DNA of 17,867 nucleotides, taken from IMG/VR virus record IMGVR_UViG_3300044294_000233. The stretch is one strand, 5' to 3'. The notes below the pieces were generated by a model. It was not told the origin of the DNA, did not search any database, and saw only the letters and a list, made by a program, of their open reading frames with translations. Both the position numbers and the translations under genes were made by a program. The DNA is from a virus. Its lineage: Duplodnaviria > Heunggongvirae > Uroviricota > Caudoviricetes. Below are positions 612 to 17,867 of the stretch, piece by piece (positions within the stretch are counted from its first letter, which is position 1; each line of letters begins with the position of its first letter).

Positions 612-921
612 TCGGTCTGACCTGACTGCCGAGGACGTTGAACTTGGAGCCGCGAAGCTCCTCGGCGACAGCGTCCTCAGCAACTTTTTTGGCGTCGGCC
701 ATATTGTCCGCTTCGACTTCTTTCGTTTTGAACTCGGCTCCGAGTCCACGGTCGTAGCGAACCACCACCTCGAACTTGCAGATATTCTTTTCCGGTAACT
801 TGGTTCCGCACCACGGGCAGTAGATGATGCCGGGGTGGTTGTCGCCGAAATCCCACGCTCCCGGCCCGCCACAGATGTGGGTCACGCCGGTTTCACAACA
901 GAGTTTTACTTTAGTCCCCAT
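601..921 (-). CDS. Small Zn-ribbon-like protein (CC..C..H..CPWC), 106 aa
   Basis: ORF with Cys pairs (LCCETGVTHICGG ... YCPWCGT) typical of a zinc ribbon. Its start overlaps the stop of the upstream minus-strand gene by 16 nt (operon-style). The 11-nt convergent overlap with gene 1..611 is observed. Confidence 0.5.
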   Translation of the reverse strand: MGTKVKLCCETGVTHICGGPGAWDFGDNHPGIIYCPWCGTKLPEKNICKFEVVVRYDRGLGAEFKTKEVEADNMADAKKVAEDAVAEELRGSKFNVLGSQVRPIKA

Positions 922-1448
922 TTTCGTTTCATCTCTTCGAGGAATTGTTCCTTCATCCTTTGGCCGATGGCAACATCGCGTTGGTCGGCGAGGTTGATGT
1001 ATTCGTATTCTTTCTTGCGGGCAACCACTGCCAGTTTTTCGATTTCCATTTCCCAGTCGCCTGGGGCGAACGCCCCAAGTTCACCACTCATCTCATGGTA
1101 CACGATCTCGCCCTTCCACCGCACCCAAATTTCCGGGCCGTCAAACTTGATCTCCAGATGAAGCCCCCGACTGTAGCCGTTAAAGAGGTAGGCGTTCGCG
1201 GCCATGCCCGCATCGGCCGTGGGGATTTCGCCCTCTTCGAGTTCGTCTTCTTCGAGGAAGTTCTGTTCGAGGCCCATCATGTTCTCGAATTCATGGAACA
1301 TGGCACGCCTGCCGCCGCCGTGTCGCCCGTAAACCTTGTCTCCCAACATCCGCGCGACGCACGCGAGCTTGCCCTCGCCGCTCATAAGACCCTTGCGTAC
1401 CGCCTCGACGGTGCGTTGCTCGCGGATGATGTCTTCTTTTGATCGCAT
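906..1448 (-). CDS. Hypothetical protein, 180 aa
   Basis: Long minus-strand ORF with ATG at 1446-1448 and GC3-rich codons. Diverges from gene 1476 across a 27-bp intergenic region. No recognisable domain. Confidence 0.5.
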   Translation of the reverse strand: MRSKEDIIREQRTVEAVRKGLMSGEGKLACVARMLGDKVYGRHGGGRRAMFHEFENMMGLEQNFLEEDELEEGEIPTADAGMAANAYLFNGYSRGLHLEIKFDGPEIWVRWKGEIVYHEMSGELGAFAPGDWEMEIEKLAVVARKKEYEYINLADQRDVAIGQRMKEQFLEEMKRKWGLK

Positions 1449-1456
1449 GATGCGAC

Positions 1457-1490
1457 TATATACCTCGGAGGCACAATGGAAACCAAGAAA
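1457..1490 (+). promoter_or_regulatory. Shared 5' module copy 1: TATATAC, 12 nt including GGAGG, then ATGGAAACCAAGAAA
   Basis: A -10-like TATATA sits 13 nt upstream of the ATG. The 15-nt start of the coding sequence is identical to copy 2 at 4460-4474. Confidence 0.35.
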
Positions 1491-3137
1491 AACCTAGCAG
1501 TGACGCAGACACAGCAGAACAGACGCCCGTATGGTCCGTCTCGCCCGCCAACCCCTACCCCTTCAGAGAGCGTGATCCGCCGTGACGGTGAGATCCGTTT
1601 CTTCATGGACGAGGAGTCAAACACCCCCTTCATCCAAAACGTTCAGGTTCCGACCGAGAACCCGGACCCGCCGTTTTCCGTTCAGAACTACAAGGGTTAT
1701 TCCCCCGATCCGAACTCACCACAGGCGCTCGCGGCCAACTGCATGGCTACGCTCTGCTCGGCCCAAAGGATGTTGAAGAAGTACCTCGGCACGCTCCCGA
1801 AGTGGGCGGCGGTCAAAGTTCTTCGCGTTTACCCGAACGCCGGGAACCAGTTGAACGCCTTCTACAATCGCGAGTCGTTGCAGTTCTTCACGGGCCGGAA
1901 CCCTGTGAACGGGCAGGTGGTCCACACCTGTTTGTCGAACGACGTGGTCACCCACGAATTCTTTCACTCGGTACTTGACTCTTTGAAGCCCGTGCTGTTC
2001 AATACTCCATTCATTGAACAGGGTGCGTTTCACGAAGCGTTCGCCGACTGCGGCTCGATCCTGCATGCGATGTCGATTGACCCGGTTTTGACCTATACTG
2101 CACAGCAGATGGACGCGGCCCAAAGCAGTACCATTGCGTCGTCCGTAGCACCGGATCTGGGCTATGCGATCAACGGGGTGATCGGCGGGCTGCGTGACGC
2201 TTCGGTTCCGTACTACTACATCGATCCGGCCACACTGCCGAGATCTGCGCCGAAGAACCAGTTGTCCAGCGAGGTCCACAGTTTCAGCCGCGTGTTCAGC
2301 AGTGCGTTTTACGCTGCGATCATGGCCGTTTACGCCAAAGTGAAGGCACCGGGCGGTATCGGCACACGCGAAGCACTGATCATCGCACGCGACGAAATGG
2401 CTACGGTTTTGTTCCGTGCGGTACAAAACGCCCCGCTGACTCCGAGGTACATGGCTTCAATTGCGAGTACCATGTTGACAGAACTCGCTACCGGGCCTTA
2501 CGCAACTGAAGTTGCGAGCGTTTTTGCGACGTGGGGGTTGACCACGGTTCGTGCGGCCTCGACCGAAAGCGTCGAGGTTTTGCCGACCGACAAGGCTGTG
2601 AAGATCGGCGATCAGGATTTCTTGATTCGCGAAAAAAGCACTCAGATGGTACTGGCGGATACAATGATTGTCGGTCAGTCTGACAATCCGCTGTACTTCT
2701 GTAAGGTTGATGTCCCGCACGAGCAACTTTTGGTCGCTCAGGGCTTCGGCATGGCGGGGTTCGTAGACGGCGCAGAAGACGAGGAAATTCTCGATGAAGT
2801 TAAACTTGGTCTTGACTATATTTGGGAGTCGGACCTAGTAACCCTTCACGGGGAGCCGGTCAAGGACCACCACGTTTTCAAGGTTGATGAATCAGGCTCG
2901 CTGCTGAGGACCAGCTATAATTCCGACGACGGCTACTTCAACAACGCCACCTTGCCCGGTGCGCCAGAGTTTGGTAAGCCGTGGAAACCAGAAAACAATT
3001 CGGGGTGTTGCTCCGGTTGTAAGAAGAAAGTAGACCCTCCAGTTCGTCCACCGAAACTGGGGTGCTACGTCAACGAACGAGTGTGCGGCTCTCGTACTGT
3101 GCGAAGCTGCCAAGTCGTCCGTCAAAAGGTGTGTTAA
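1476..3137 (+). CDS. M4 thermolysin-family-like zinc metallopeptidase with Pro-rich N-terminus and Cys-rich C-terminal tail, 553 aa
   Basis: RBS GGAGG 4 nt before the ATG. Motifs NAFYNRESLQFFTG, VVTHEFFHSV (HExxH) and EQGAFHEAFADCGS (third-ligand Glu, ExxxD), with EVHSF downstream, parallel thermolysin NAFWNG / VVAHELTH / NEAISD / GGVHIN. No signal peptide visible. C-terminal tail is CCSGCKKK...C...C...C...C. Confidence 0.65.
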   Translation: METKKNLAVTQTQQNRRPYGPSRPPTPTPSESVIRRDGEIRFFMDEESNTPFIQNVQVPTENPDPPFSVQNYKGYSPDPNSPQALAANCMATLCSAQRMLKKYLGTLPKWAAVKVLRVYPNAGNQLNAFYNRESLQFFTGRNPVNGQVVHTCLSNDVVTHEFFHSVLDSLKPVLFNTPFIEQGAFHEAFADCGSILHAMSIDPVLTYTAQQMDAAQSSTIASSVAPDLGYAINGVIGGLRDASVPYYYIDPATLPRSAPKNQLSSEVHSFSRVFSSAFYAAIMAVYAKVKAPGGIGTREALIIARDEMATVLFRAVQNAPLTPRYMASIASTMLTELATGPYATEVASVFATWGLTTVRAASTESVEVLPTDKAVKIGDQDFLIREKSTQMVLADTMIVGQSDNPLYFCKVDVPHEQLLVAQGFGMAGFVDGAEDEEILDEVKLGLDYIWESDLVTLHGEPVKDHHVFKVDESGSLLRTSYNSDDGYFNNATLPGAPEFGKPWKPENNSGCCSGCKKKVDPPVRPPKLGCYVNERVCGSRTVRSCQVVRQKVC

Positions 3138-3157
3138 CCAACCCAGAGAGGGCTATC

Positions 3158-3496
3158 ATGGCAGCTTTCCCAGAAGACGATTACAAGAACCGGAACGCGA
3201 TGTCGTCCGGCGTTCCCGGCGGATTCGGCGGGGGCGTCGATGACGATGATGACTTCGACGGCGACCTAGACGACGATGACGACGACTGGGACGACGACGA
3301 TGATCTCGATGACGATGACGATGACGATGACGACTTCGATGACGAAGACGACGATGACGACTGGGATGATGACGACGACTTCGATGACGAAGACGATGAC
3401 GACCTAGACGACGATGACGACTGGGATGATGACGATGACGATGACGACGACGACGACTTCGATGACGATGACGACGACGATGACGTGAACTTCTGA
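3158..3496 (+). CDS. Extreme poly-aspartate acidic protein (about 80% Asp, aromatic/Leu residue every 6-10 residues), 112 aa
   Basis: ATG 3158 is in frame with track ORF 3062..3496 and is preceded by GAGAGGG 5 nt upstream. Sequence is MAAFPEDDYKNRNAMSSGVPGGFGGGV followed by about 85 aa of D with spaced F/W/L. It lies 20 nt after the peptidase stop on the same strand, and the next gene starts 8 nt after its own stop. Confidence 0.5.
   Translation: MAAFPEDDYKNRNAMSSGVPGGFGGGVDDDDDFDGDLDDDDDDWDDDDDLDDDDDDDDDFDDEDDDDDWDDDDDFDDEDDDDLDDDDDWDDDDDDDDDDDFDDDDDDDDVNF
3230..3490. repeat. Low-complexity GAY-codon (GAC/GAT) tract encoding poly-Asp
   Basis: Near-continuous gacgatgacgac... with interspersed tgg/ttc/cta codons. 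Slippage-prone. Confidence 0.8.
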
Positions 3497-3504
3497 GAGG
3501 CGCA

Positions 3505-4137
3505 ATGATCGCGGCTTTGGAGTTCTACATTCGCAGTACAGATCTTCGTAACAACCTTCCGGTCCCTTGCTCTTTCTGCCTGGAAAGCGAGCGTGGCGAC
3601 CGGAAGGTTGTTACTTTGAACGACGCTTATCGCCACCCCGATCAGATCGCGGTCAGGCAATGGAATCTCACCGAGTGCGAAGACAATCAATCGCTCCCAA
3701 CTATTCAGGAACGGATCATTCCACGCGGCGAGGTTTTTATCAGTGATGCGGTGATCATTCCCAACCACCGGCTTCTCAATTTGGTCAACGGTATCGGCAT
3801 ACCGAGCGGCCTCAATTTCCGAAACAAGCCCATGCCGGCCGATCAGTACACTCGGTTCTACGACAAGCTTCTGTCGATGGAATCTCAACTCTTCATCAAA
3901 GAGACGTGGGTCTGGCGAGAGTTCATCAGGGTTTATTTGCCTTTGATGTACACTCTGATTTACAGCGAGCGGGACGAGTTCGACCGGCTCAGAGAAATCA
4001 TGTCGATGATCCCGACCAACCAGCCGGAATTGTGGCATAAGTGGTTGAGGTGGAAGAAGTACATGCTCGATATGCCGGGCGTTCCGGGCGAAATCCTCTT
4101 CTACAAAGAATACGGGTCCGTCTTCCGCTTCGTGTGA
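3505..4137 (+). CDS. Hypothetical Trp-rich protein, 210 aa
   Basis: RBS GAGAGG 5 nt upstream of the ATG. GC3-biased codon usage like other plus-strand genes. The overlapping minus-strand ORF 3181..4152 looks like an antisense artefact. Confidence 0.55.
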   Translation: MIAALEFYIRSTDLRNNLPVPCSFCLESERGDRKVVTLNDAYRHPDQIAVRQWNLTECEDNQSLPTIQERIIPRGEVFISDAVIIPNHRLLNLVNGIGIPSGLNFRNKPMPADQYTRFYDKLLSMESQLFIKETWVWREFIRVYLPLMYTLIYSERDEFDRLREIMSMIPTNQPELWHKWLRWKKYMLDMPGVPGEILFYKEYGSVFRFV

Positions 4138-4138
4138 C

Positions 4139-4408
4139 TCACGGGTTGACACCCAGTTCTTTGGCCCTATACATGTTCCGTTTTATTAGGTCGCGGTCGT
4201 CGTAGCTCGGTTGTGTGATCTCTCGCGGCGGCTTTTTGCGTTTCTTCTCTTTGCCGAACTGTTCTTCTTTGCCGGGTGGTCTGGCACCTTTGGTGTTGCC
4301 GGCAATGGGTGCGTTCGGTCCCAACATGATTTGGACCGGAGGCGCGGGTGCGGTTCCCCACGAATCGCCCGCCGTCTCTCTCATTTTGACGTACTCGGCG
4401 AAGGTCAT
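4139..4408 (-). CDS. Small basic Gly/Pro/Lys-rich protein, 89 aa (start chosen at internal ATG with RBS)
   Basis: Internal Met54 of track ORF 4139..4567 is preceded by CAGGAGAAACC (GGAG 6 nt upstream). The longer ORF would run into the start of divergent gene 4460. KEKKRKKPPRE basic patch. Confidence 0.45.
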   Translation of the reverse strand: MTFAEYVKMRETAGDSWGTAPAPPVQIMLGPNAPIAGNTKGARPPGKEEQFGKEKKRKKPPREITQPSYDDRDLIKRNMYRAKELGVNP

Positions 4409-4448: not shown

Positions 4449-4474
4449 TTATATACGGCATGGAAACCAAGAAA
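4449..4474 (+). promoter_or_regulatory. Shared 5' module copy 2: TTATATAC-GGC-ATGGAAACCAAGAAA
   Basis: TATATAC sits 4 nt upstream of the ATG with no SD. The 15-nt identity with 1476-1490 is observed directly. Confidence 0.35.
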
Positions 4475-4990
4475 CCCTGGCCCGGCATCATGACGATTCT
4501 TTCTCTCGAACAGGTCCGCGACGGCTGCGTGATCTACCGCGAGGAGAACGTACTCAACACACTCCACTTTCTGGGCGAGCAGTTCCTTTTGAACGCCCTG
4601 TTCCTGGGCGGCAACGCGCCGAACACATACATCCCCAACAACTACTACTTGGGGTTGGACAACAGGACGATTCTGGCAATTGGCGATACGATGGAGAGCT
4701 TGCAGAACGAGCCGTTCATCAACGGGTATTCACGTCAGCCGGTCAATTCTACGACCGGCTTCTCGATGACGGTTTCGGGCGGGGTGCATCAGGTGTCGAG
4801 TCAGATCGTGACCTTCTCGGCGGTCGGCGGGAGTTGGGGACCGTGCAGCAACATCTTCTTGTCAGATAAACCAAACACGACGGGCGTATTGATCAGCAGC
4901 GCGAAGCTGACGAATCCGGTAACGGTTCAGTCTGGGGACTCGGTGAACATGCGGATGGGCATGTCACTTCGGTACTGCCCCGCCAGTTGA
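4460..4990 (+). CDS. Hypothetical protein, 176 aa, begins METKK like gene 1476
   Basis: Good GC3 codon bias over the whole ORF. No SD; TATATAC lies only 4 nt upstream, so possibly a leaderless or short-leader mRNA. The first 15 nt are identical to the first 15 nt of gene 1476. Confidence 0.55.
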   Translation: METKKPWPGIMTILSLEQVRDGCVIYREENVLNTLHFLGEQFLLNALFLGGNAPNTYIPNNYYLGLDNRTILAIGDTMESLQNEPFINGYSRQPVNSTTGFSMTVSGGVHQVSSQIVTFSAVGGSWGPCSNIFLSDKPNTTGVLISSAKLTNPVTVQSGDSVNMRMGMSLRYCPAS

Positions 4991-7293: not shown

Positions 7294-7646
7294 AAGAAGC
7301 TCTCGAAAACCTCAAATACTTTGTCGGCAAGGCCGTCAGCATCTTCACCGGACCCATCAACCGCGACTTTGACGAGCGACAGAAGTGCGACTACTTCGTC
7401 GGGATCGTCAAGTCGGTCGATTCGATGGGAATTATGACGCAGCACCCCATTACGGGCTGCTGCAACTACTATTTCTACAGCCAGATCGTCGGCATCGCCG
7501 AAGAACAGATTCTGGATTCTGCCAATCCCGAACACGCCACGGTCATTGCCGAAATCGAAGCAAAACGGCGGATGGCTACTACGCCCCCGCCGTCGAATAA
7601 TTTGGTCGATGTCAATGCCTTGTCCAAACTGGCCGGACTCCATTAA
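7290..7646 (+). CDS. Hypothetical protein, 118 aa, translationally coupled to primase
   Basis: ATGA start/stop overlap with the primase gene at 7290-7293. Consistent codon usage. No recognisable domain. Confidence 0.5.
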   Translation: MKEALENLKYFVGKAVSIFTGPINRDFDERQKCDYFVGIVKSVDSMGIMTQHPITGCCNYYFYSQIVGIAEEQILDSANPEHATVIAEIEAKRRMATTPPPSNNLVDVNALSKLAGLH

Positions 7647-9331
7647 GACTCGCGATAGATCCTTTCCGACACCGCCCTCATCTTCTGTTTGAAACCCGAC
7701 ACACCTTCGCCGAAGTGCTTTTTGACCTCTTCGTCATCGTCTTCATAGGTTTTCTTCTTTTTCTTCTCGCTGGACATTGCTTGGATGTCTTTGTACTTAC
7801 CGGCCTCAATCAACTTCAAGAATTTTCTCCTTAAAGTCTTGCTATCGGATATGTGATCCCATGTGTCCATCAGCTTTTTCACCAGTTCACGATCCGTCTT
7901 GACAACCTTTTCAATTTTGGAGGCGAACTCTTCGTATTGGGGTTCGTAGAGCCGTTGTTGGACAGCAGCCGTTTCTGGATTGTCTTCAAAATTGTCGCTT
8001 TTATCGTGGGACGAAAGTGCTTTCAAGTCATCGAAGTCCGACCGCTTTTCGGTGTCCTTTGGGTTTTCATCGGACATATTGTGAATCTCGGCGCGGTCGC
8101 CAACCTCTGGCTTTTCGTCTTCCGAACGATGACCCTCTTCTTTGTCTTTTCTGAGAAGTCTTGCAATTCGTTTCGTAACCTTGTCTTCGGTATCGTCCGG
8201 TCGTTCGACACGACCAGCTAGATCCAACTGATTGAAAAATTCGGGATAGTATTTGCTGAGGATCTCGTGCCTCGGATCATCAATTCGCAATACTTTTGGC
8301 AAAGTAAACGGACCACTTTGGCTGCGGTTAGTTATCCGCTTGCCGTTGTTTCCGCGATTGTTATGCAGATTCTTTCGTTTGCCAAGTTTGTTCCACGGCT
8401 CGTGTATCGCTCGGAGAATCTCCTGTTCTCTGGTGTTCAGACCACTCCATGCGTCACCCTTCTTTTTCTTCTGCCTGAAAAGCTCCAAGTATCTGTTAGT
8501 CGCAGCGTGGATTTCTTTCAGTGGGTATTTGTCTTCAGCCGTGTCATTTTTCGGACAATGTCCAGAACGACAAGCACCAATAATAAGTCTTTTCTTGGAA
8601 TCATCGAGTTTTCCGAAGATACCAAAAGTGGTTCTGGTGTCTTTGAATATGCCAAATTTTTCAGCCTGCTTATCGAGAGTCAGTTCGGGTTTTTCGGCCG
8701 GTTTTAGCGGGGCTGTACTGCCGTCGTCTCCCTCATCATCGGCGGCAGACCCAGGCACGAAATCGTCATCATGCACAGTCGGCGTTCTTGGTTCCGGCGT
8801 CGGCTCCGGTGTCGGACGAGGCTTTTCGGGTGCTGGTGTACTGCCCACACGAGTTGCCATACTGCGAACGCGATTCATCATGTCGTCCAAACTGGACGCG
8901 ATGGTCTGACGGAGTCTGGCGGTCCAGTTGTTTAGGATCTTTCGGATCAGTGGTTGTGGTGCTGCGGAGGCGTCTTCCCACAGGGTGTCCGCGAGGTTTT
9001 TGAGCATCGCGTATTCGCGGACGGTGGGCGGTTCGAGGTCGGTGCGGCCGAGTGCGCCGATCTTGTTTTGCCAGTAGTACGGGTTGGAACGACGGTCGCT
9101 ACCGAACAGGTTCTTCCACCAGTTGTGAACGCGGGTAAAGAACCCTCGCTTGGAAGGCAGCTTGTCGTTCATGATCTGCGTTTGCAAATCGTTGACGAGT
9201 CCGACGACCTTCTGGTCCAGATTTCTTCTGACGGAAGCCAGTTGCTGGTAAAGAGCTTCTAGTTCGGAGGCGAAGTCCTTGCTCCCCTCGAAAAAGCTCA
9301 GTTGTTCGTACAAATCGATTGTTCTCAGCAT
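7643..9331 (-). CDS. Large hypothetical protein, 562 aa, with Pro-rich linker and K/E/D-rich C-terminal half encoded by an AT-rich segment
   Basis: Long ORF. Start ATG 9329-9331 is preceded by AGGGGGA. PTPEPTPEPRTPT linker. C-terminal half is low-complexity charged. 3' end overlaps convergent gene 7290..7646 by 4 nt. Confidence 0.65.
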   Translation of the reverse strand: MLRTIDLYEQLSFFEGSKDFASELEALYQQLASVRRNLDQKVVGLVNDLQTQIMNDKLPSKRGFFTRVHNWWKNLFGSDRRSNPYYWQNKIGALGRTDLEPPTVREYAMLKNLADTLWEDASAAPQPLIRKILNNWTARLRQTIASSLDDMMNRVRSMATRVGSTPAPEKPRPTPEPTPEPRTPTVHDDDFVPGSAADDEGDDGSTAPLKPAEKPELTLDKQAEKFGIFKDTRTTFGIFGKLDDSKKRLIIGACRSGHCPKNDTAEDKYPLKEIHAATNRYLELFRQKKKKGDAWSGLNTREQEILRAIHEPWNKLGKRKNLHNNRGNNGKRITNRSQSGPFTLPKVLRIDDPRHEILSKYYPEFFNQLDLAGRVERPDDTEDKVTKRIARLLRKDKEEGHRSEDEKPEVGDRAEIHNMSDENPKDTEKRSDFDDLKALSSHDKSDNFEDNPETAAVQQRLYEPQYEEFASKIEKVVKTDRELVKKLMDTWDHISDSKTLRRKFLKLIEAGKYKDIQAMSSEKKKKKTYEDDDEEVKKHFGEGVSGFKQKMRAVSERIYRES

Positions 9332-10733: not shown

Positions 10734-11744
10734 TTACTTTCGGGTTGACGCCTCGGCAGCGAGCAGACACCCACGAGCAACACTGTACAAGGTGTCCTGC
10801 GGACGGATCACTTCGCTCACCTTGATCGGCAGCTTGGCGTCGTCCAGAACAGTCTTGAACATTTCCACGAAACCGGGCGGCGAACTGGTCCCACCGGAAA
10901 CAACGATGTCGAACGGGTCGTCCGTCCTTACGACTTTGCTGTTCTTGTTCAGGCCGTTTTTGATTTCGGATACGCAGTGTTCGATCATCAGCCGGTACTG
11001 GCTGATGATCGCCCGTTCGATGAGGTCACCGGGAGCTTTCGAGAGATCGATCTTCATCTTCTGTTTGTTGATGAAGGTCGGCGACTCGGCAGTGGCTCGC
11101 GCCGCCTGCTTGTCGATCCAGTCTCCGCTGTTGACGATTGCGAAAGAGAAGACGGGGTTGCCGAACATGGCCATACACAGGTTGACCATACCGGCCCCGA
11201 AGCTGATCCCGATTCCCGTGTACGCCTTCTTCGACAGTTCGGCGTAAACGAGGGCGAGGGCTTCGTTAATCGGGTGCGGATCGACTCGCATTCCGTCCTT
11301 GTTCCTGAAGGCTTTGAAGATGCCTTCGAGCGTCAGGCGGTGGAAGTTCGCGTCCGTTTCGACGTTGATTGCGTTGGCCGGGACGCAGAAGTAGAGAGGC
11401 TCCTTGTCCTCCTTCACCGTCTCGATCAGCGAGTGGATCATGATGCTCAAGATCTGGTAGGCTTCCTTTTCCTTCGGGTTCACGCACCCGTCCGACATCG
11501 GCCGCTTCAACTCCATCGAGTTGATCGCGTAGGCCATCTTGACCGCCGACTCGCCGAGGGCGTAAGCCAACTTGTCCCTCTTGATCAGCGGGACACCAGC
11601 GTTATTCATCATGTTGTAGACGAAGTCGTTTTCGAGAGGAATCTCGATAAATGCGTTGACTTCGCGCTTGTGAACGAAGTTTCCCTTTTCGTCACGCTTG
11701 GAGCATACGAGGTTGTATGTGCCAACGTCAAATCCGATTGCCAT
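10734..11744 (-). CDS. Actin-fold ATPase (ParM/MreB/FtsA-like), 336 aa
   Basis: Phosphate-1 MAIGFDVGTYNLV. Phosphate-2 GIGISFGAGMVNL. Adenosine motif DIVVSGGTSSPPGF. C-terminal YSVARGCLLAA, like MreB ...CVARGTG. Start taken at Met21, which is preceded by AAAGGGTGA; the track start at 11804 has no RBS. Confidence 0.7.
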   Translation of the reverse strand: MAIGFDVGTYNLVCSKRDEKGNFVHKREVNAFIEIPLENDFVYNMMNNAGVPLIKRDKLAYALGESAVKMAYAINSMELKRPMSDGCVNPKEKEAYQILSIMIHSLIETVKEDKEPLYFCVPANAINVETDANFHRLTLEGIFKAFRNKDGMRVDPHPINEALALVYAELSKKAYTGIGISFGAGMVNLCMAMFGNPVFSFAIVNSGDWIDKQAARATAESPTFINKQKMKIDLSKAPGDLIERAIISQYRLMIEHCVSEIKNGLNKNSKVVRTDDPFDIVVSGGTSSPPGFVEMFKTVLDDAKLPIKVSEVIRPQDTLYSVARGCLLAAEASTRK

Positions 11745-11778
11745 GTCTTTCACCCTTTCGTTTTGAGGTCTTTCGATC

Positions 11779-12033
11779 TCACTTGTCGTACTTTCCGAAT
11801 TCAATCGTTTCGGTGGATGGTGTGAACTCAGGTATCATCCACTCTGCTGCCTCTGCGGGCTTCGGTGCCATCTGCTTTTGCTCAGGCACCTGATCCGCAC
11901 TCGCTACCGACGCCACAGACATTCCCACCACACCGCCACCAAGATTCAGATTCAGGTCGATTACCAACCTGACCGTTATCTCTCCGTCGCGGGTCGTGAT
12001 GTTCACGTTCTGTGGTTTGATAACTTGAGGCAT
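11779..12033 (-). CDS. Small hypothetical protein, 84 aa, immediately upstream of actin-like gene
   Basis: ORF with weak RBS-like AGGTAA. Plausible codon usage. Position is analogous to an adaptor or regulator gene of a segregation module, but no motif was recognised. Confidence 0.4.
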   Translation of the reverse strand: MPQVIKPQNVNITTRDGEITVRLVIDLNLNLGGGVVGMSVASVASADQVPEQKQMAPKPAEAAEWMIPEFTPSTETIEFGKYDK

Positions 12034-12075: not shown

Positions 12076-13053
12076 TCATTCGATTTGTGGCTTGTACGGC
12101 CACTTCGCCATCATTTTTTCTATACCGTCCATCACCATGTCGGACGTGATCTCGCTCGCACACGGCTTGATCGTTTTCTTGCACTCTTTTTTGCACATCG
12201 ACCAGTTGAAGCACGGGCCGCAATCCCAGTTGCTGTCGTCCCTGTGCTTTTGAACGAGTACGAAGTCGAAATACTTTCCGTACACTTTTCCGTCGCAGTA
12301 GGTAAAAATTCCCACCAGCGGTTTCTTCAGCCCGCCCGCGCAGTGGAACGCCGACGTGTCAACGCTCAAGACGTAGTCGGCCGCGTCCAGTGCCGTTATC
12401 CACTGTCGCGTGTTCAAGCCGCTCAAGGTTCGGCACCCGATCTGATCGAGGTGTGGCATGGACTTGTTGTGCAGACAAACGACGTTGCACCCCTTCTGCC
12501 AAACTCGCGTGACGACTTCCGTCTGTAGTGCCGGCGACATGTCCTTGCCGATCTGAGCCGACGCGGGACACATTGCCAAGATCGGAGCGTTCGGACTCGA
12601 TACGCTGCGTTGCAGAAGTTGACGGGCGGCTTTCTTCTCTTCGGCCGTTACGCCGAGATACATTTCGTGCTTGCCAATTACCACGCCACAGTGGTTGGCC
12701 CAGATGTCGCTGCGGTGCTTGTCGGCTCTGGGTGCGATGGCGTTCTCGTACCGGCCGCACGCGAAGGTGATGTTGTAGACGAGGGTGAAGTCGGCTTTGT
12801 TGACGGTGCGGCAGTCAACCACTTCGTCAACAAATGGATGTCTCGCGGCGGCTTCCAAGTATTGTTGGGGGACGGCCCAGGTGATGTGACATTCGGGCAT
12901 CACACGTTTGAAGCTCTCGAACATCATCCTTTGCATCAGGATGTCGCCGAGGCCACCAACGTCGCGAACGACCAGCACCCTATCACGTCGCTCGTAGTAA
13001 TCTCTAAGACCCCACGCCGGCGCTTTTGAAGGTGTCTTTCTCTTGATCTTCAT
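12076..13053 (-). CDS. Glycosyltransferase family 9-like (heptosyltransferase-like) protein with Cys-rich C-terminal tail, 325 aa
   Basis: N-terminal RVLVVRDVGGLGDILMQ resembles the GT9 N-terminus (R..lGDvi). LSVDTSAFHCAGGLKKPLVGIFT matches the GT9 C-terminal motif (DSGpmHLAaAlgtPvvalFG). Tail is WDCGPCFNWSMCKKECKKTIKPC. Confidence 0.6.
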   Translation of the reverse strand: MKIKRKTPSKAPAWGLRDYYERRDRVLVVRDVGGLGDILMQRMMFESFKRVMPECHITWAVPQQYLEAAARHPFVDEVVDCRTVNKADFTLVYNITFACGRYENAIAPRADKHRSDIWANHCGVVIGKHEMYLGVTAEEKKAARQLLQRSVSSPNAPILAMCPASAQIGKDMSPALQTEVVTRVWQKGCNVVCLHNKSMPHLDQIGCRTLSGLNTRQWITALDAADYVLSVDTSAFHCAGGLKKPLVGIFTYCDGKVYGKYFDFVLVQKHRDDSNWDCGPCFNWSMCKKECKKTIKPCASEITSDMVMDGIEKMMAKWPYKPQIE

Positions 13054-14404: not shown

Positions 14405-14624
14405 GTCGGACTCCAATCTGATCAAAGAAACGATGGACGATTTCTTCAGTAATTTTGGCGCGGCCGATGACCCGCATGCGAAATTACTCATTCAAATGGT
14501 GCTGGCCGAGGCTCTGCGTCCTGGCAACAAAAACAACAATCGATTTTGGGTGAAGTGCGATGCGAATGTTGAGAAATGTCCCGTCGTGCCGCATACAATA
14601 GTTCATGGGAAAACCGTGGTCTGA
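14403..14624 (+). CDS. Small hypothetical ORF, 73 aa, at the left edge of the AT-rich homing-endonuclease island
   Basis: AT-shifted codon usage like the HE gene. Its end overlaps the HE start by 20 nt. It is in the same frame (coordinate mod 3 = 0) as ORF 15462..15821. Weak call. Confidence 0.3.
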   Translation: MSDSNLIKETMDDFFSNFGAADDPHAKLLIQMVLAEALRPGNKNNNRFWVKCDANVEKCPVVPHTIVHGKTVV

Positions 14625-15465
14625 ATCCGAGTTGGAATTACTTCGTCAGCTTGGGCCGTCAAAACATTCGACTGAATTAATTGATTGCTTGCCGGGCCAT
14701 ACTGCACCTGCCATTGCCAAGATGAGGAACAGAATCGGCGTAGTTATTACGGCTGAGTGTCGTTCTAGGTCTGGCGAAAAGGCCGCTCGGTTTCGCAATG
14801 GCTGCAAACTCGACCAAAACCTTTCCTTGTCTGATTTTGACGACTGCGTTTTTCAGGTACTGATCGGCAGTATGTTGGGCGATGGTTGTGTGACCAAAAG
14901 CGACGACTGCAAAAACTACTTCTTCTGCGAAGGACATGGTTCCAAACAGACTGATTACCTCGAATGGAAAATGAACATCCTGTCGCCTTTCATGTCGCGA
15001 TGGAATTCAAACAAAAAGACGCACATTTCTACGGCCCGTCATCCGATATTTACTTCATTGAGAGATCGATTCTACAAGGCCAGGAAAAACTGCGACAAAA
15101 GCATAATTCCAGTAGACTTGATTTCCAAGCTGAATTTTTTCGGGTTGATGATTTGGTACATGGACGATGGCTACCTGGGGACTACCAGAACCGGCCGTCT
15201 TAGCAATGGACTCAAAAAATCGCCACAACCTTCAATATCAGCCAAAGGATGGGATCGTATCGACTTGGAGAACGCGGTGTCCATTTTGAATCAAAACTTA
15301 GATCTATCAATGTACATCAAGTATTACAAACACAGAAATGGTCAGAACAAGTTAGTTATGCTTGGCAAAAGCAGAGACTTCTTGCTGTCTAAATGGAAGA
15401 CAATTTCACAAGAACGTAAACTGCCGGCTTGTATGTCGTACAAGCTAGAATGCGAGGTTTGATGA
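14405..15465 (+). mobile_element. AT-rich island carrying the homing endonuclease gene (free-standing HEG or intron-like insertion)
   Basis: Local drop in GC and codon bias against a high-GC background, coinciding with the HE ORF and the small upstream ORF. Confidence 0.4.
14605..15462 (+). CDS. LAGLIDADG homing endonuclease (two-motif, monomeric type) with N-terminal Myb/HTH-like extension, 285 aa
   Basis: Two LAGLIDADG motifs: VLIGSMLGDGCV and FFGLMIWYMDDGYL. N-terminal WSESELELLRQL resembles a Myb/SANT-like helix. Codons are markedly more A/T-ending than surrounding genes. A stop lies immediately upstream in frame. Confidence 0.8.
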   Translation: MGKPWSESELELLRQLGPSKHSTELIDCLPGHTAPAIAKMRNRIGVVITAECRSRSGEKAARFRNGCKLDQNLSLSDFDDCVFQVLIGSMLGDGCVTKSDDCKNYFFCEGHGSKQTDYLEWKMNILSPFMSRWNSNKKTHISTARHPIFTSLRDRFYKARKNCDKSIIPVDLISKLNFFGLMIWYMDDGYLGTTRTGRLSNGLKKSPQPSISAKGWDRIDLENAVSILNQNLDLSMYIKYYKHRNGQNKLVMLGKSRDFLLSKWKTISQERKLPACMSYKLECEV

Positions 15466-15821
15466 GTCGTTGTTACCTGTATCTGGCGCGGCGGGACAAA
15501 ATGGGGGCCAGAGTGGTCACGGTGCTGGACGGCCCGCAGCGACCGCCAATCCGACTCGTTGATCTGGAATCTCTGAAACTGCCCCCGACGATTCATGCGA
15601 GTGTCGAGAAGATCATTTACGACAATCGCATGTATTGGGAGCCGTGGATCGAGTCGGCCGAACACTACCAAGAGTTGAGGAAGAAACTACACGCCAGGGG
15701 TTTTCAAGGGCTGTATCCGAGTTGCAAACCCTTGTTCGACGGCACCTCTTTCTTGCTGCCGCCGAAGGCCGACCTGAAGAAGCACCCGAAGAAGAAGACG
15801 ATGTTGACGAGGAAGTCTTAG
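15462..15821 (+). CDS. Hypothetical protein, 119 aa, Lys-rich C-terminus; start overlaps HE stop (TGATG)
   Basis: Start at Met12 of track ORF 15429..15821, so it does not overlap the HE body. Codon usage back to the GC-rich style. Confidence 0.4.
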   Translation: MSRCYLYLARRDKMGARVVTVLDGPQRPPIRLVDLESLKLPPTIHASVEKIIYDNRMYWEPWIESAEHYQELRKKLHARGFQGLYPSCKPLFDGTSFLLPPKADLKKHPKKKTMLTRKS

Positions 15822-16097: not shown

Positions 16098-16937
16098 CTA
16101 CTTTCCCTGGAAGAAACGGCTCAAATCCTCCAGGGGTATATACGTTGCAACCTTCAACTTCGGGCCGACCGAGTGCTGTACCGTCTTGCAGCCGTTGTTT
16201 TGAGACAGCCAATACAGATTGCCGTCGATCAGTTTGTTTGCGGTCAGGTGCTGTGGATAGTACCACTTCCCGTCCTCACTCTGCTCGCTGCCCTGCCTCT
16301 GCTCATCGAACGCTTCGTCGCAGAAAGCCAGAGCCAGCTTCTGAACCCCGAACTTGTGCAGAAGGTTGATGGCGGCACAAACCGGGTTGCGGTAGTCATC
16401 GATCTTGTACTTACAGTCCCTGTTCTCGACCCCGCAGTACCATGCGTCACTCGACGGACAGTACCTGTACTTCATTCCGGTGTAGCCCTTCAAGAACTCG
16501 CTGTTCGCGCGAGTCGAAGCGATACACTTGGTCGTCGTTGACCTCGGTAGATAGCTCTGAGCTTCCGAATAAGGGTTGTTGACGACGTAGAAATTGGGAC
16601 TTCTTTTTGTCGATTTCCATTTGGACAAACTCCCGTTGACCGCGAAGATCAACACGTCCTTCGGCAAGGCCGCGATTTGCTCGTGACCCGACTCGAAGTC
16701 GAAGCCGTCCGAAACGATTACCGCCTTGTTGACGCTCAAATTCTCCGTGTCGATCCACGGGTACTTGGCCCGCATCGACCACTGCTCGTTCTTGAGGATC
16801 AGCGGGTAGTCGGCGGTTGACAAAAGTCGGTTGATGTCTTTGTACGGAACCCCGCTGACGCCGGGGTTCCGTACCCACAAGTCGTCTCCGACGTGCAGGT
16901 ACTGGTTCTTGTTCGCGTGTTTTTTCAGTCTGTACAC
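16098..16937 (-). CDS. Hypothetical protein, 279 aa; tentative resemblance to DUF115 / MptE-like (Maf-like) putative transferase family
   Basis: GTG start with GGAGGTAAG immediately upstream. Segment KAVIVSDGFDFES...LIFAVNGS loosely matches the aivvgsGPS ... iifavN signature of that family. The family assignment is low-confidence. Confidence 0.5.
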   Translation of the reverse strand: MYRLKKHANKNQYLHVGDDLWVRNPGVSGVPYKDINRLLSTADYPLILKNEQWSMRAKYPWIDTENLSVNKAVIVSDGFDFESGHEQIAALPKDVLIFAVNGSLSKWKSTKRSPNFYVVNNPYSEAQSYLPRSTTTKCIASTRANSEFLKGYTGMKYRYCPSSDAWYCGVENRDCKYKIDDYRNPVCAAINLLHKFGVQKLALAFCDEAFDEQRQGSEQSEDGKWYYPQHLTANKLIDGNLYWLSQNNGCKTVQHSVGPKLKVATYIPLEDLSRFFQGK

Positions 16938-16938
16938 C

Positions 16939-17867
16939 TTACCTCCTACACGGTACGAATCTGACGCACTGGCCCTCGCCCTCGTCGTCGCTGAGTAGTT
17001 TGCTCATGTCGAGTTCGACCTTGTGCGTGATCGGGTCGCCACGGTACACCATTTCCACTTCCGGCTTCTCTGGCAGGACCAAGTGGATCGCGGTCGGGAC
17101 GTTGCTGACCAAGTGGATCGCGGTCGGCGCACCCACCAGTTGGATCGATTCAGGTACGCCCACCAACTCCATCATCAGCTTCCTCGGCACGTCCTCGGCC
17201 ATTCGCAATTCGATGAACTCAGGTACGTCCTTGTTCTTCAAGAAAATGAATTCCGGTACGTTAGTCGCCCTCAGTTCAAAGAACTCAGGCAGGTTGTGTT
17301 TCAAAGAGATCTCGTTCGGAATCGGCGTCTCGGCCTTGATTTCGATGTAGGTCGGCAACGTGGTTCCGCGAACCTCGATGAACATTGGCAGATCGTGTAC
17401 CAGTCTCATGTCCGGTATTTCCGGCACCACGACCTTGATCTCGGACGGGATGCCGATGTCTTGCGCGGTTACCAGCGGAGGGTCCGACTGGAAGCTGTCA
17501 ACGAAGCTCTCCTCGAACCCGCCCGACATCATCGCCATCGGCGTCACCGACGTACTTCCGCAACTGACCGTGACCACGCAACTCAGAACCGGCACCGGGT
17601 TCCAGTTCACGTCGATTACCGTGGGGACGTTCGCGTTGTATGCGAAGATTGAAGTCGGGATGTTGATGTTGTACCCCAAGATCGAAGTCGGGATATTGAC
17701 GTTGTATGCCAAGATCGAAGTCGGGATATTGACGTTGTACGCCAAGATCGAAGTCGGGATGTCAACGTTGTACGCCAAGATCGAGGTCGGGAAAGACCCG
17801 TAGACGTTGATCGAGGTCGGGAAAGATCCGTAGACGTTAATCGTTGTCGGGATGTTCGCGTAAACAT
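16939..17867 (-). CDS. Tandem-repeat protein (11-aa repeats (A/G)YN(V/I)NIPTSIL, then degenerate 11-12 aa xPEFIELRxxx repeats), 5' end beyond window; probable fiber or beta-solenoid structural protein
   Basis: The frame stays open to the window edge. The track Met at 17778 is internal. At least eight 11-aa repeats are visible (VYGSFPTSIN, AYNVDIPTSIL, AYNVNIPTSIL, ...). Its stop is 1 nt before the start of the next gene. Confidence 0.6.
   Translation of the reverse strand, partial: VYANIPTTINVYGSFPTSINVYGSFPTSILAYNVDIPTSILAYNVNIPTSILAYNVNIPTSILGYNINIPTSIFAYNANVPTVIDVNWNPVPVLSCVVTVSCGSTSVTPMAMMSGGFEESFVDSFQSDPPLVTAQDIGIPSEIKVVVPEIPDMRLVHDLPMFIEVRGTTLPTYIEIKAETPIPNEISLKHNLPEFFELRATNVPEFIFLKNKDVPEFIELRMAEDVPRKLMMELVGVPESIQLVGAPTAIHLVSNVPTAIHLVLPEKPEVEMVYRGDPITHKVELDMSKLLSDDEGEGQCVRFVPCRR
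17635..17867. repeat. 33-bp (and 30-bp) tandem DNA repeats, at least 7 units, coding for the 11-aa protein repeats
   Basis: Units such as gttgtatgccaagatcgaagtcgggatattgac recur head-to-tail with a few substitutions. They continue to the window edge. Confidence 0.8.

Follow-up and report, generated by a model that had tools for sequence, protein, structure and literature searches.

What does a phage gain by encoding, immediately downstream of a thermolysin-like protease, a small protein made almost entirely of aspartate, and does that protein act on the protease? The question arises in a 17,867-nt stretch of DNA from a virus of the Caudoviricetes (IMG/VR record IMGVR_UViG_3300044294_000233; hereafter the window), in which an earlier note, made from the sequence alone, had described three co-directional genes 8-20 nt apart as a candidate undescribed phage module. 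The list of open reading frames (ORFs) and the raw sequence bear out the gene order and the coordinates. The protease-like ORF (1476-3137, + strand, 553 aa) is followed after 20 nt by the poly-aspartate (poly-Asp) ORF (3158-3496, +, 112 aa) and this, after 8 nt, by a third ORF (ORF3; 3505-4137, +, 210 aa), which agrees with the spacing stated there; a K/R/P-rich ORF (4139-4408, − strand, 89 aa) converges on the set, its stop 1 nt from that of ORF3. We find that the protease represents a new family within a known fold, that a nearly pure poly-Asp protein beside it varies in a new way the theme of a protease accompanied by a small cognate protein, and that the cassette is conserved in a large clade of huge phages with T4-type portals; the pairing could even represent a new principle. 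The literature that we searched, on acidic or poly-aspartate proteins of huge and jumbo phages, thermolysin-like phage proteases and disordered DNA mimics, yielded no description of the module, in keeping with the earlier note, the nearest statement being a general remark that some jumbo phages encode uncharacterised zincin-like peptidases (PMC7824862).

We compared the first gene product (1476..3137, +) with known peptidase families. In Pfam it matched the two thermolysin profiles in the right order, both below the curated cut-offs (PF01447, M4: 15.7 bits vs. 22.4, E = 0.022; PF02868, M4_C: 14.7 bits vs. 24.4, E = 0.028), so that it fails membership in M4 by these thresholds; no match was found in PHROGs or NCBIfam. 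A family profile run against PDB sequences retrieved the M36 protease Mep (E = 7e-5) and thermolysin (E = 0.009). The gluzincin signature HExxH...xEAxxD is present, and the full motif is kept in all 87 phage homologues described below. The active-site segment (1953..2048, +) carries HEFFH at aa 160-164 and FHEAFAD at aa 185-191, with Glu187 as the third zinc ligand, and alignments of 20 and 78 homologues show no variation at H160, E161, H164, H186, E187, D191 and H268; H268 is the putative counterpart, by alignment, of the catalytic His of thermolysin. The AlphaFold2 model, confident for residues ~30-485 (predicted local distance difference test, pLDDT, 84; predicted template modelling score, pTM, 0.84), has the two-lobed thermolysin fold. 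It also contains an extra C-terminal beta/alpha domain (2556..2930, +; aa ~361-485), delimited by a pLDDT of about 90, the secondary structure of the model and the alignment columns. This domain is missing from classical M4 and M36 enzymes and is conserved in bacterial homologues as well; within it, L476 is invariant among 20 homologues and R478 is invariant among the same 20 and nearly so among 78. A library of predicted viral structures held just one entry similar to the protease. The view of the protein as an M4-like zinc peptidase thus stands by fold and catalytic motif and falls short by Pfam, where profile searches return the expected domains at sub-threshold scores.

The protease was also said to lack a signal peptide, and the hydropathy of its first 60 aa supports this: no hydrophobic stretch was found there (maximum Kyte-Doolittle hydropathy −0.02), which leaves the N-terminus without a Sec signal. 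Residues 1-30 are Pro-rich and disordered in the model, and form the only ~30 residues ahead of the catalytic N-lobe. No FTP or PepSY match was obtained in Pfam and no pro-domain is visible in the AlphaFold2 model; the pre-pro-enzyme organization of M4, a signal peptide plus an FTP/PepSY pro-peptide, is therefore absent. By its fold and catalytic motif, we read the protein as a cytoplasmic, probably active endopeptidase with the thermolysin fold, from an uncurated family closest to M36/M4, and not as a Pfam-level member of M4. Because the fold and the active site are intact and neither a signal peptide nor a pro-domain is present, an unrestrained broad protease would appear in the cytoplasm.

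The second product (3158..3496, +) consists of a 26-aa non-acidic N-terminus and an 86-aa core of Asp interspersed with F, L and W, ending in VNF. The composition of about 80% Asp given in the earlier note holds for the core, the whole protein being 63.4% Asp, and its net charge is −72 and not −75. The W/F/L residues had been called periodic; we measured irregular intervals of 4-12 residues. Such a chain is expected to be intrinsically disordered. A Shine-Dalgarno-like purine-rich stretch (AGAGAGGG, 3145-3152) lies just ahead of the ORF.

We then collected relatives of the locus. Scanned as a pattern against IMG/VR, the protease alignment gave 80 phage loci on contigs of up to 572 kb, and other look-ups brought the phage set to 87 loci. 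A protease identical to that of the window occurs on contigs of up to 476 kb, one with 66% identity on a 586-kb contig, and one with 29% identity in LR756511.1, a 595-kb uncultured phage. In these relatives a T4-type portal gene with an intein, the large terminase gene and a ferritin-like gene lie upstream, and a Gp80-like fibre gene, a PD-(D/E)XK nuclease gene and a Toprim primase gene downstream. Since the relatives are on very large contigs or genomes with portal and terminase genes upstream, the window is part of a huge phage, and the module is, as proposed, a phage module, its protease family being widespread in IMG/VR contigs. In 75 of the 87 loci, which range from AT-rich to 57% GC and in which protease identity ranges from 29 to 100%, the protease gene is followed on its own strand by a hyper-acidic ORF with interspersed W/Y/L/F; this ORF is the most acidic frame of the whole ~13-kb locus and usually lies within about 1 kb of the protease.

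These ORFs encode 68 distinct proteins of 56-170 aa with net charges of −34 to −105. Their cores contain 62% D, 19.5% E, 3.8% W, 3.1% Y, 2.9% L and 1.8% F; each other residue type accounts for at most 1.8% (K, R, H, C, P, A, T and Q for at most 0.5% each), and W/Y/L/F make up 64% of the non-acidic residues. Asp codons prevail in GC-rich genomes and D/E mixtures in AT-rich ones. Because the DNA shifts among GAC, GAT and GAA with GC content while the acidic and aromatic character is kept, selection appears to act on the protein and not on the DNA. The proteins begin with a short non-acidic N-terminus, often amphipathic (e.g., LPDWMEEAY) and conserved within subclades. The window protein ends in DDDDVNF; about one third of the 68 family members end in F or Y, the rest in acidic or other residues.

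The search for homologous operons thus places a counterpart at the same position in most related phage loci, and we conclude that the poly-Asp ORF is a real, conserved gene and not a product of chance or an assembly oddity. That the frame is no gene at all, being a GAY simple repeat, or some element acting at the DNA level such as a site of packaging or recombination, that is open by chance, is scarcely credible. Its DNA is a GAY-type tandem repeat, as that explanation would have it, and several assemblies (L001, L003 and L005) end inside the gene. The repeat is imperfect, however (69% matches, with 25 GAT and 46 GAC mixed), the frame is not interrupted by stops in many relatives, and the acidic and aromatic character persists in the 68 distinct sequences despite the change in DNA. 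It is preceded by the Shine-Dalgarno-like stretch, begins with a non-repetitive N-terminus conserved within subclades, and, in loci with ORF3, ends close to it: ORF3 occurs in 24 loci, and its frame (stop to stop) always opens −54 to +19 nt from the poly-acidic stop. The tract is 89, 139 and 155 aa long in L041, L043 and L042, respectively, which are near-identical phages. Either the repeat is hypervariable or it assembles poorly, and its length in databases may be unreliable on that account.

As a reciprocal test, we searched 2.9 million IMG/VR contigs with a DNA pattern for D5-W-D5 and obtained 43 loci. About 17 of the matches are small hyper-acidic ORFs, and the protease adjoins 11 of the 13 that could be evaluated (4 were not evaluable). 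The remaining matches are acidic tracts within larger proteins, including tails resembling that of the single-stranded DNA-binding protein (SSB). An acidic run followed by ...DDDDDVPF, like the tip of bacterial SSB, is C-terminal in L178 (5232-5408) and internal in L205 (1180-2499) and L210 (8539-9858).

A further element tracks the poly-acidic gene. The protease ends in a separable basic Cys-rich tail (2931..3134, +; aa 486-553) with 7 Cys and a net charge of +8, its motif being PEFGKPWKPENNSGCC ... GCYVNERVCGS ... QKVC; this tail is poorly modelled (AlphaFold2 pLDDT below 50). In 45 loci the protease itself carries the motif PE[FY]xKxxKPENNxGC as a fusion, and in at least 14 the motif lies in a separate ORF of ~100 aa between the protease and poly-acidic genes (e.g., L009, 7519-7842). 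The module is present in 59 of the 75 loci with a poly-acidic gene vs. 2 of the 12 without one. The count of 59 comprises 57 regular-expression matches plus L017 and L018 added by eye; the raw table with 57/75 gives a Fisher P of about 1e-4, not corrected for phylogeny. Alignment of the module with hhalign revealed no similarity to emfourin or to the RRF family, the two bacterial families described next.

To place the phage loci among their cellular relatives, we scanned representative bacterial genomes and obtained 80 homologue loci from many phyla. A poly-acidic ORF was found in just 1 of the 80, a 5.6-kb contig of a metagenome-assembled genome. In 14 of the 80, emfourin (PF20242, E = 5.5e-12 to 2.3e-24) is encoded directly downstream on the same strand, as counted with a hidden Markov model (HMM) built from bacterial emfourin-like ORFs, Pfam confirming PF20242 for three representatives. 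A second family of ~90 aa ("RRF") is directly downstream of the bacterial protease in about 20-30 of the 80 loci (e.g., L105, 2973-3227; L099, 5303-5578); it has the conserved end RGEAxxxGxLPPGATHEIV...RRRFSAL and no Pfam or NCBIfam match, and it may be another partner or inhibitor of the protease. HMM searches found neither family in any phage locus. Similarity to the phage enzymes is higher in the RRF-linked bacterial subgroup (median 146 bits) than in the emfourin-linked one (102 bits). According to PMC9505478, which cites Chukhontseva et al. 2021, emfourin inhibits the intracellular M4 protease protealysin and shares an operon with it; emfourin binds the active-site region of protealysin 1:1, and its deletion is deleterious. 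With an emfourin or RRF ORF there in bacteria and a poly-acidic ORF in phages, the slot after the protease gene recurrently holds a small cognate protein, an inhibitor in the one characterised case. The idea of the poly-Asp protein as an inhibitor or surrogate pro-peptide, raised in the earlier note, thereby gains indirect support.

We also examined when the cassette might be expressed. The protease gene is separated by 27 nt (1449..1475) from the divergent gene up180 (906..1448, −; 180 aa), its most constant neighbour, which adjoins the protease in 89 phage loci and in no bacterial locus (phmmer). This intergenic region contains TATATAC at 1457-1463 and GGAGG, the Shine-Dalgarno sequence of the protease gene, at 1467-1471. 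TATATAC occurs 5 times in the window vs. 0.13 expected, a second box (4450-4456, +) lying upstream of the Gp80-like gene; TATATA(C/G) is also found at 16136-16143, upstream of a 91-aa gene. Among 61 distinct up180-protease intergenic regions, from AT-rich and GC-rich phages alike, 46 have the hexamer TATA[AT]A 10-25 nt upstream of the protease Shine-Dalgarno sequence, and in L001 the box recurs (2707-2712) in the interval that separates the portal gene from the gene diverging from it. The box is a candidate clade-wide promoter class that would include structural genes, and, being palindromic, it may work in both directions. Because portal and fibre genes share it, the box hints that the cassette may be expressed late rather than immediate-early.

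The protease and Gp80-like genes are further identical in the first 15 nt of their coding sequences (METKK), which had been taken as a possible virion-targeting peptide. This candidate is not supported, the N-terminus of the protease being unconserved: orthologues with 53-66% identity begin MSDEK (L002) and MSEIQ (L004), the L007 gene begins MRSKK, and METK is native only to the Gp80-like gene. Since it adjoins the shared TATATAC box, the 15-nt identity suggests coincidence or a short conversion tract.

Gene position suggests that the poly-Asp protein is the protease's own regulator. We tentatively favour this reading, in which the protein is the trans-acting partner of the phage protease, as an inhibitor, a pseudo-substrate or a clamp on the basic Cys-rich tail; we consider it quite possible while stopping short of calling it probable. 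It is based on an enzyme without a pro-domain, on relatives that keep an inhibitor in the same slot, and on a poly-acidic gene that tracks the protease and the Cys-rich module. From these we infer a physical interaction and inhibition, as well as the timing and the substrates outlined here. The polyanion would keep an otherwise constitutively active protease latent, or sequester it, in the infected cell. It may do so by electrostatic clamping of the +8 tail, by offering its L/F/W residues as a pseudo-substrate that enters the hydrophobic S1' pocket and brings Asp carboxylates close to the zinc, or by both routes; thermolysin-type enzymes have a hydrophobic P1' specificity, with L and F the classical preference. 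Inhibition might later be relieved by slow cleavage, dilution or competition from DNA, and the freed protease would act late in infection on host proteins or virion precursors. A more specific form, in which the chains are a novel, genetically encoded class of polyanion evolved by huge phages (60-170 residues, net charge down to −105, aromatic "stickers") that gates the protease together with the Cys-rich basic module, or in which the chains act as nucleic-acid surrogates, seems to us possible and rather doubtful.

Several observations weigh against a protease partner. The whole region is syntenic across the clade, with up180, Gp80, a 171-aa gene, the PD-(D/E)XK nuclease and the primase conserved too, so adjacency could be inherited gene order and not functional coupling. 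Opposite-strand genes for a DUF3568 lipoprotein or other genes intervene in many loci, and the protease and poly-acidic genes are therefore not always co-transcribed. An intact protease occurs with no poly-acidic gene nearby in 10-12 loci, and in each of L200 and L206 a small W-spaced acidic protein is encoded in an unrelated phage setting that lacks the protease. Overall electrostatic complementarity of the protease core is not seen, its median net charge being −4. The poly-Asp protein shows no similarity to emfourin or to the RRF family. Finally, classical thermolysin disfavours Asp/Glu at P1 and cleaves poorly after them.

The extreme negative charge of a linear chain (−34 to −105) would also suit a stand-alone polyanionic decoy, a mimic of DNA or of the SSB tail that soaks up host defence or repair proteins and owes its position to inherited synteny; its targets may be restriction enzymes, BREX, nucleoid proteins or SSB-interacting enzymes. 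The known phage DNA mimics Ocr and ArdA are strongly acidic, region-wide synteny makes adjacency weak evidence, and L200 and L206 have small W-spaced acidic proteins in other settings where the protease is absent. The aromatic end that follows an acidic run in about one third of the family members (..DDDVNF, ..DEDDY) resembles an SSB tail, whose acidic run closes in a hydrophobic-Pro-Phe tip of the DDDIPF type, and the D5-W-D5 search also retrieved true SSB-like ends (L178, L205 and L210); two thirds of the members, however, lack an aromatic end. We also found no homology to anti-restriction or defence families in Pfam, PHROG or NCBIfam. Known DNA mimics are folded, with geometrically placed carboxylates, and are not chains of ~80% Asp; a core of this composition is incompatible with an Ocr- or ArdA-like folded domain. 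Most small hyper-acidic ORFs in IMG/VR adjoin the protease, the poly-acidic gene co-occurs with the Cys-rich module of the protease, and the box common to portal and fibre genes suggests late expression. On this balance we regard a decoy as unlikely.

If the protease were instead a virion-maturation enzyme, the poly-Asp protein might be its substrate, cut N-terminal to L/F/W/Y into oligo-Asp peptides of 5-12 residues. Hydrophobic residues mostly 4-12 apart in a uniform acidic chain would fit the P1' specificity of thermolysin-type enzymes, the cassette lies near terminase, portal and fibre genes and shares its promoter-like box with the portal gene, and the free variation in tract length (89, 139 and 155 aa) is as expected if bulk peptide output alone matters. 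The poor cleavage by thermolysin after Asp/Glu at P1 argues against such processing, however, free oligo-Asp peptides have no evident use, and the prohead protease of phages with T4-type portals is normally a serine enzyme of the gp21 type (PMC7824862). We think this origin distinctly unlikely. Composition would also allow an acidic chaperone or condensate scaffold akin to histone chaperones or prothymosin, with aromatic "stickers" and Asp "spacers", which may shield basic phage proteins (the Cys-rich tail or DNA-binding internal proteins) from nucleic acids or build an assembly coacervate. A polyanionic, disordered-type chain with sparse aromatic residues and Leu and almost nothing else is what such a role would call for; the recurrent amphipathic N-terminal segment (LPDWMEEAY) could be a docking helix, the chain co-occurs with the basic Cys-rich module, and a K/R/P-rich protein is encoded nearby in the window. 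The argument is purely one from composition, however, the neighbouring basic protein is only mildly charged and rarely conserved, and where the client is the protease tail the explanation merges with that of a protease partner; as a separate account we hold it to be improbable.

The other members of the cassette are less constant. ORF3, described earlier as W-rich, has 6 Trp (2.9%); its model, an N-terminal beta-sheet followed by a helical bundle, matched no known fold. Four loci have ORF3 without a poly-acidic gene, and we take it to be an accessory member of the cassette, present in a subset of the phages. The convergent 89-aa protein is mildly basic (net +6, pI 9.8, 12% Pro) and has homologues in just 6 loci, mostly of a close clade; it is probably not part of the conserved module. 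On these two values, +6 and 6 loci, we reject it as a counter-ion partner in general, and the partnership with the poly-Asp protein that had been considered for it is not supported. No family match in PHROGs, NCBIfam or Pfam was found for the poly-Asp protein, ORF3, the basic protein, up180, the Cys-rich ORF or the RRF family of bacteria, and Rfam gave no match anywhere in the window. The Gp80-like fibre gene (4460-4990, +; PF23140 Gp80, E = 4.6e-8) is present in 54 phage loci.

Further features of the region deserve mention. Many relatives have, between the protease and poly-acidic genes, a gene on the minus strand for a lipoprotein of ~140 aa (lipobox, DUF3568/PF12092, E = 2.5e-10), as in L013 (between 7172 and 7618), L016, L030, L048 and L063; it is absent from the window. 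The T4-type portal of close relatives contains an intein (PF14890 + PF07230; L001, 98-2656; L002, 1-2311), and a ferritin/Dps-like gene adjoins the terminase gene in L001, L002, L004, L005 and L009. Within the window, an actin-family protein of 356 aa (10734-11804, −) matches Volactin (PF25216, E = 5.7e-69), which takes its name from an archaeal actin; its gene here is that of a huge phage, and L002 has it as well. A family-9, heptosyltransferase-like glycosyltransferase is encoded at 12076-13053 (−, E = 2.5e-8), and a highly charged, low-complexity protein of 562 aa with no family match at 7643-9331 (−). A LAGLIDADG_2 homing endonuclease gene (14605-15462, +, E = 4e-21) looks like a mobile insertion; its 3' half falls in the stretch of lowest GC in the window (0.43 at 15001-15500 vs. 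0.47-0.60 elsewhere). Near the end of the window (17634-17852) lies a tandem repeat with a 33-nt unit (4.8 copies, 88% matches); in the 279-aa product of ORF 16939-17778 (−) it gives rise to an N-terminus in which AYNVNIPTSIL recurs about five times.

For a widespread clade of huge phages (260-590 kb), most of whose genes are annotated "hypothetical", the cassette would amount to a core function that had gone unannotated. A cytoplasmic thermolysin-type protease emerges as a possible weapon or assembly tool of phages, and the cassette suggests that natural, nearly pure poly-aspartate proteins could serve as specific regulators. An electrostatic pseudo-substrate clamp, if true, would be a principle of protease control without a described counterpart. 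The SSB-tip-like tails of L178, L205 and L210 indicate that acidic-aromatic tails serve elsewhere in phages as interaction motifs. On the bacterial side, the same uncurated protease family, accompanied by emfourin or by a second small protein, widens the theme of an intracellular protease with an immunity-like inhibitor to many phyla.

Known systems resemble the cassette to different degrees. The adenovirus protease AVP, a cysteine protease activated by viral DNA, a polyanion, together with the basic Cys-containing peptide pVIc, offers a conceptual likeness, a viral protease governed by a polyanion and a short basic Cys-containing module; it differs in belonging to a eukaryotic virus and another catalytic class without homology, and in that its polyanion is DNA and activates rather than inhibits. 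In T4, prohead core proteins are cut by gp21 into acidic internal peptides, and here too genes for a protease and a small acidic protein with spaced potential cleavage sites lie near head-morphogenesis genes; gp21, however, is a serine protease of another fold and cleavage motif, and the T4 core proteins are not poly-Asp. T7 Ocr and ArdA are likewise small and very acidic phage or plasmid proteins, and the poly-Asp polyanion could similarly compete with DNA for DNA-binding proteins. They are folded, with carboxylates that copy B-DNA, whereas the poly-Asp chain is presumably disordered, has no sequence relationship to them and is encoded by a gene that is probably not immediate-early.

Closer relatives are found on the side of the enzyme. 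The phage protease shares with thermolysin (M4) and fungalysin (M36) the zinc ligands of HExxH, the Glu of xxEAxxD and a conserved His (H268) that by alignment would correspond to the catalytic His. It is 15-19% identical to them, with Pfam scores under the gathering thresholds, and has an additional beta/alpha domain and the Cys-rich tail; they are secreted, whereas the phage enzyme is cytoplasmic, without a signal peptide and without an FTP/PepSY or M36 pro-peptide. Compared with the protealysin-emfourin operon of Serratia proteamaculans, the phage protease is not a Pfam-level M4 member and again has the extra C-terminal domain and tail, its partner would be a disordered poly-Asp chain with no similarity to emfourin, other genes often intervene between the two in phages, and the emfourin-linked bacterial enzymes are the more distant subgroup. 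Both systems nevertheless combine a thermolysin-fold protease lacking a signal peptide with a small same-strand gene downstream, and bacterial homologues of the phage protease itself have emfourin in that slot.

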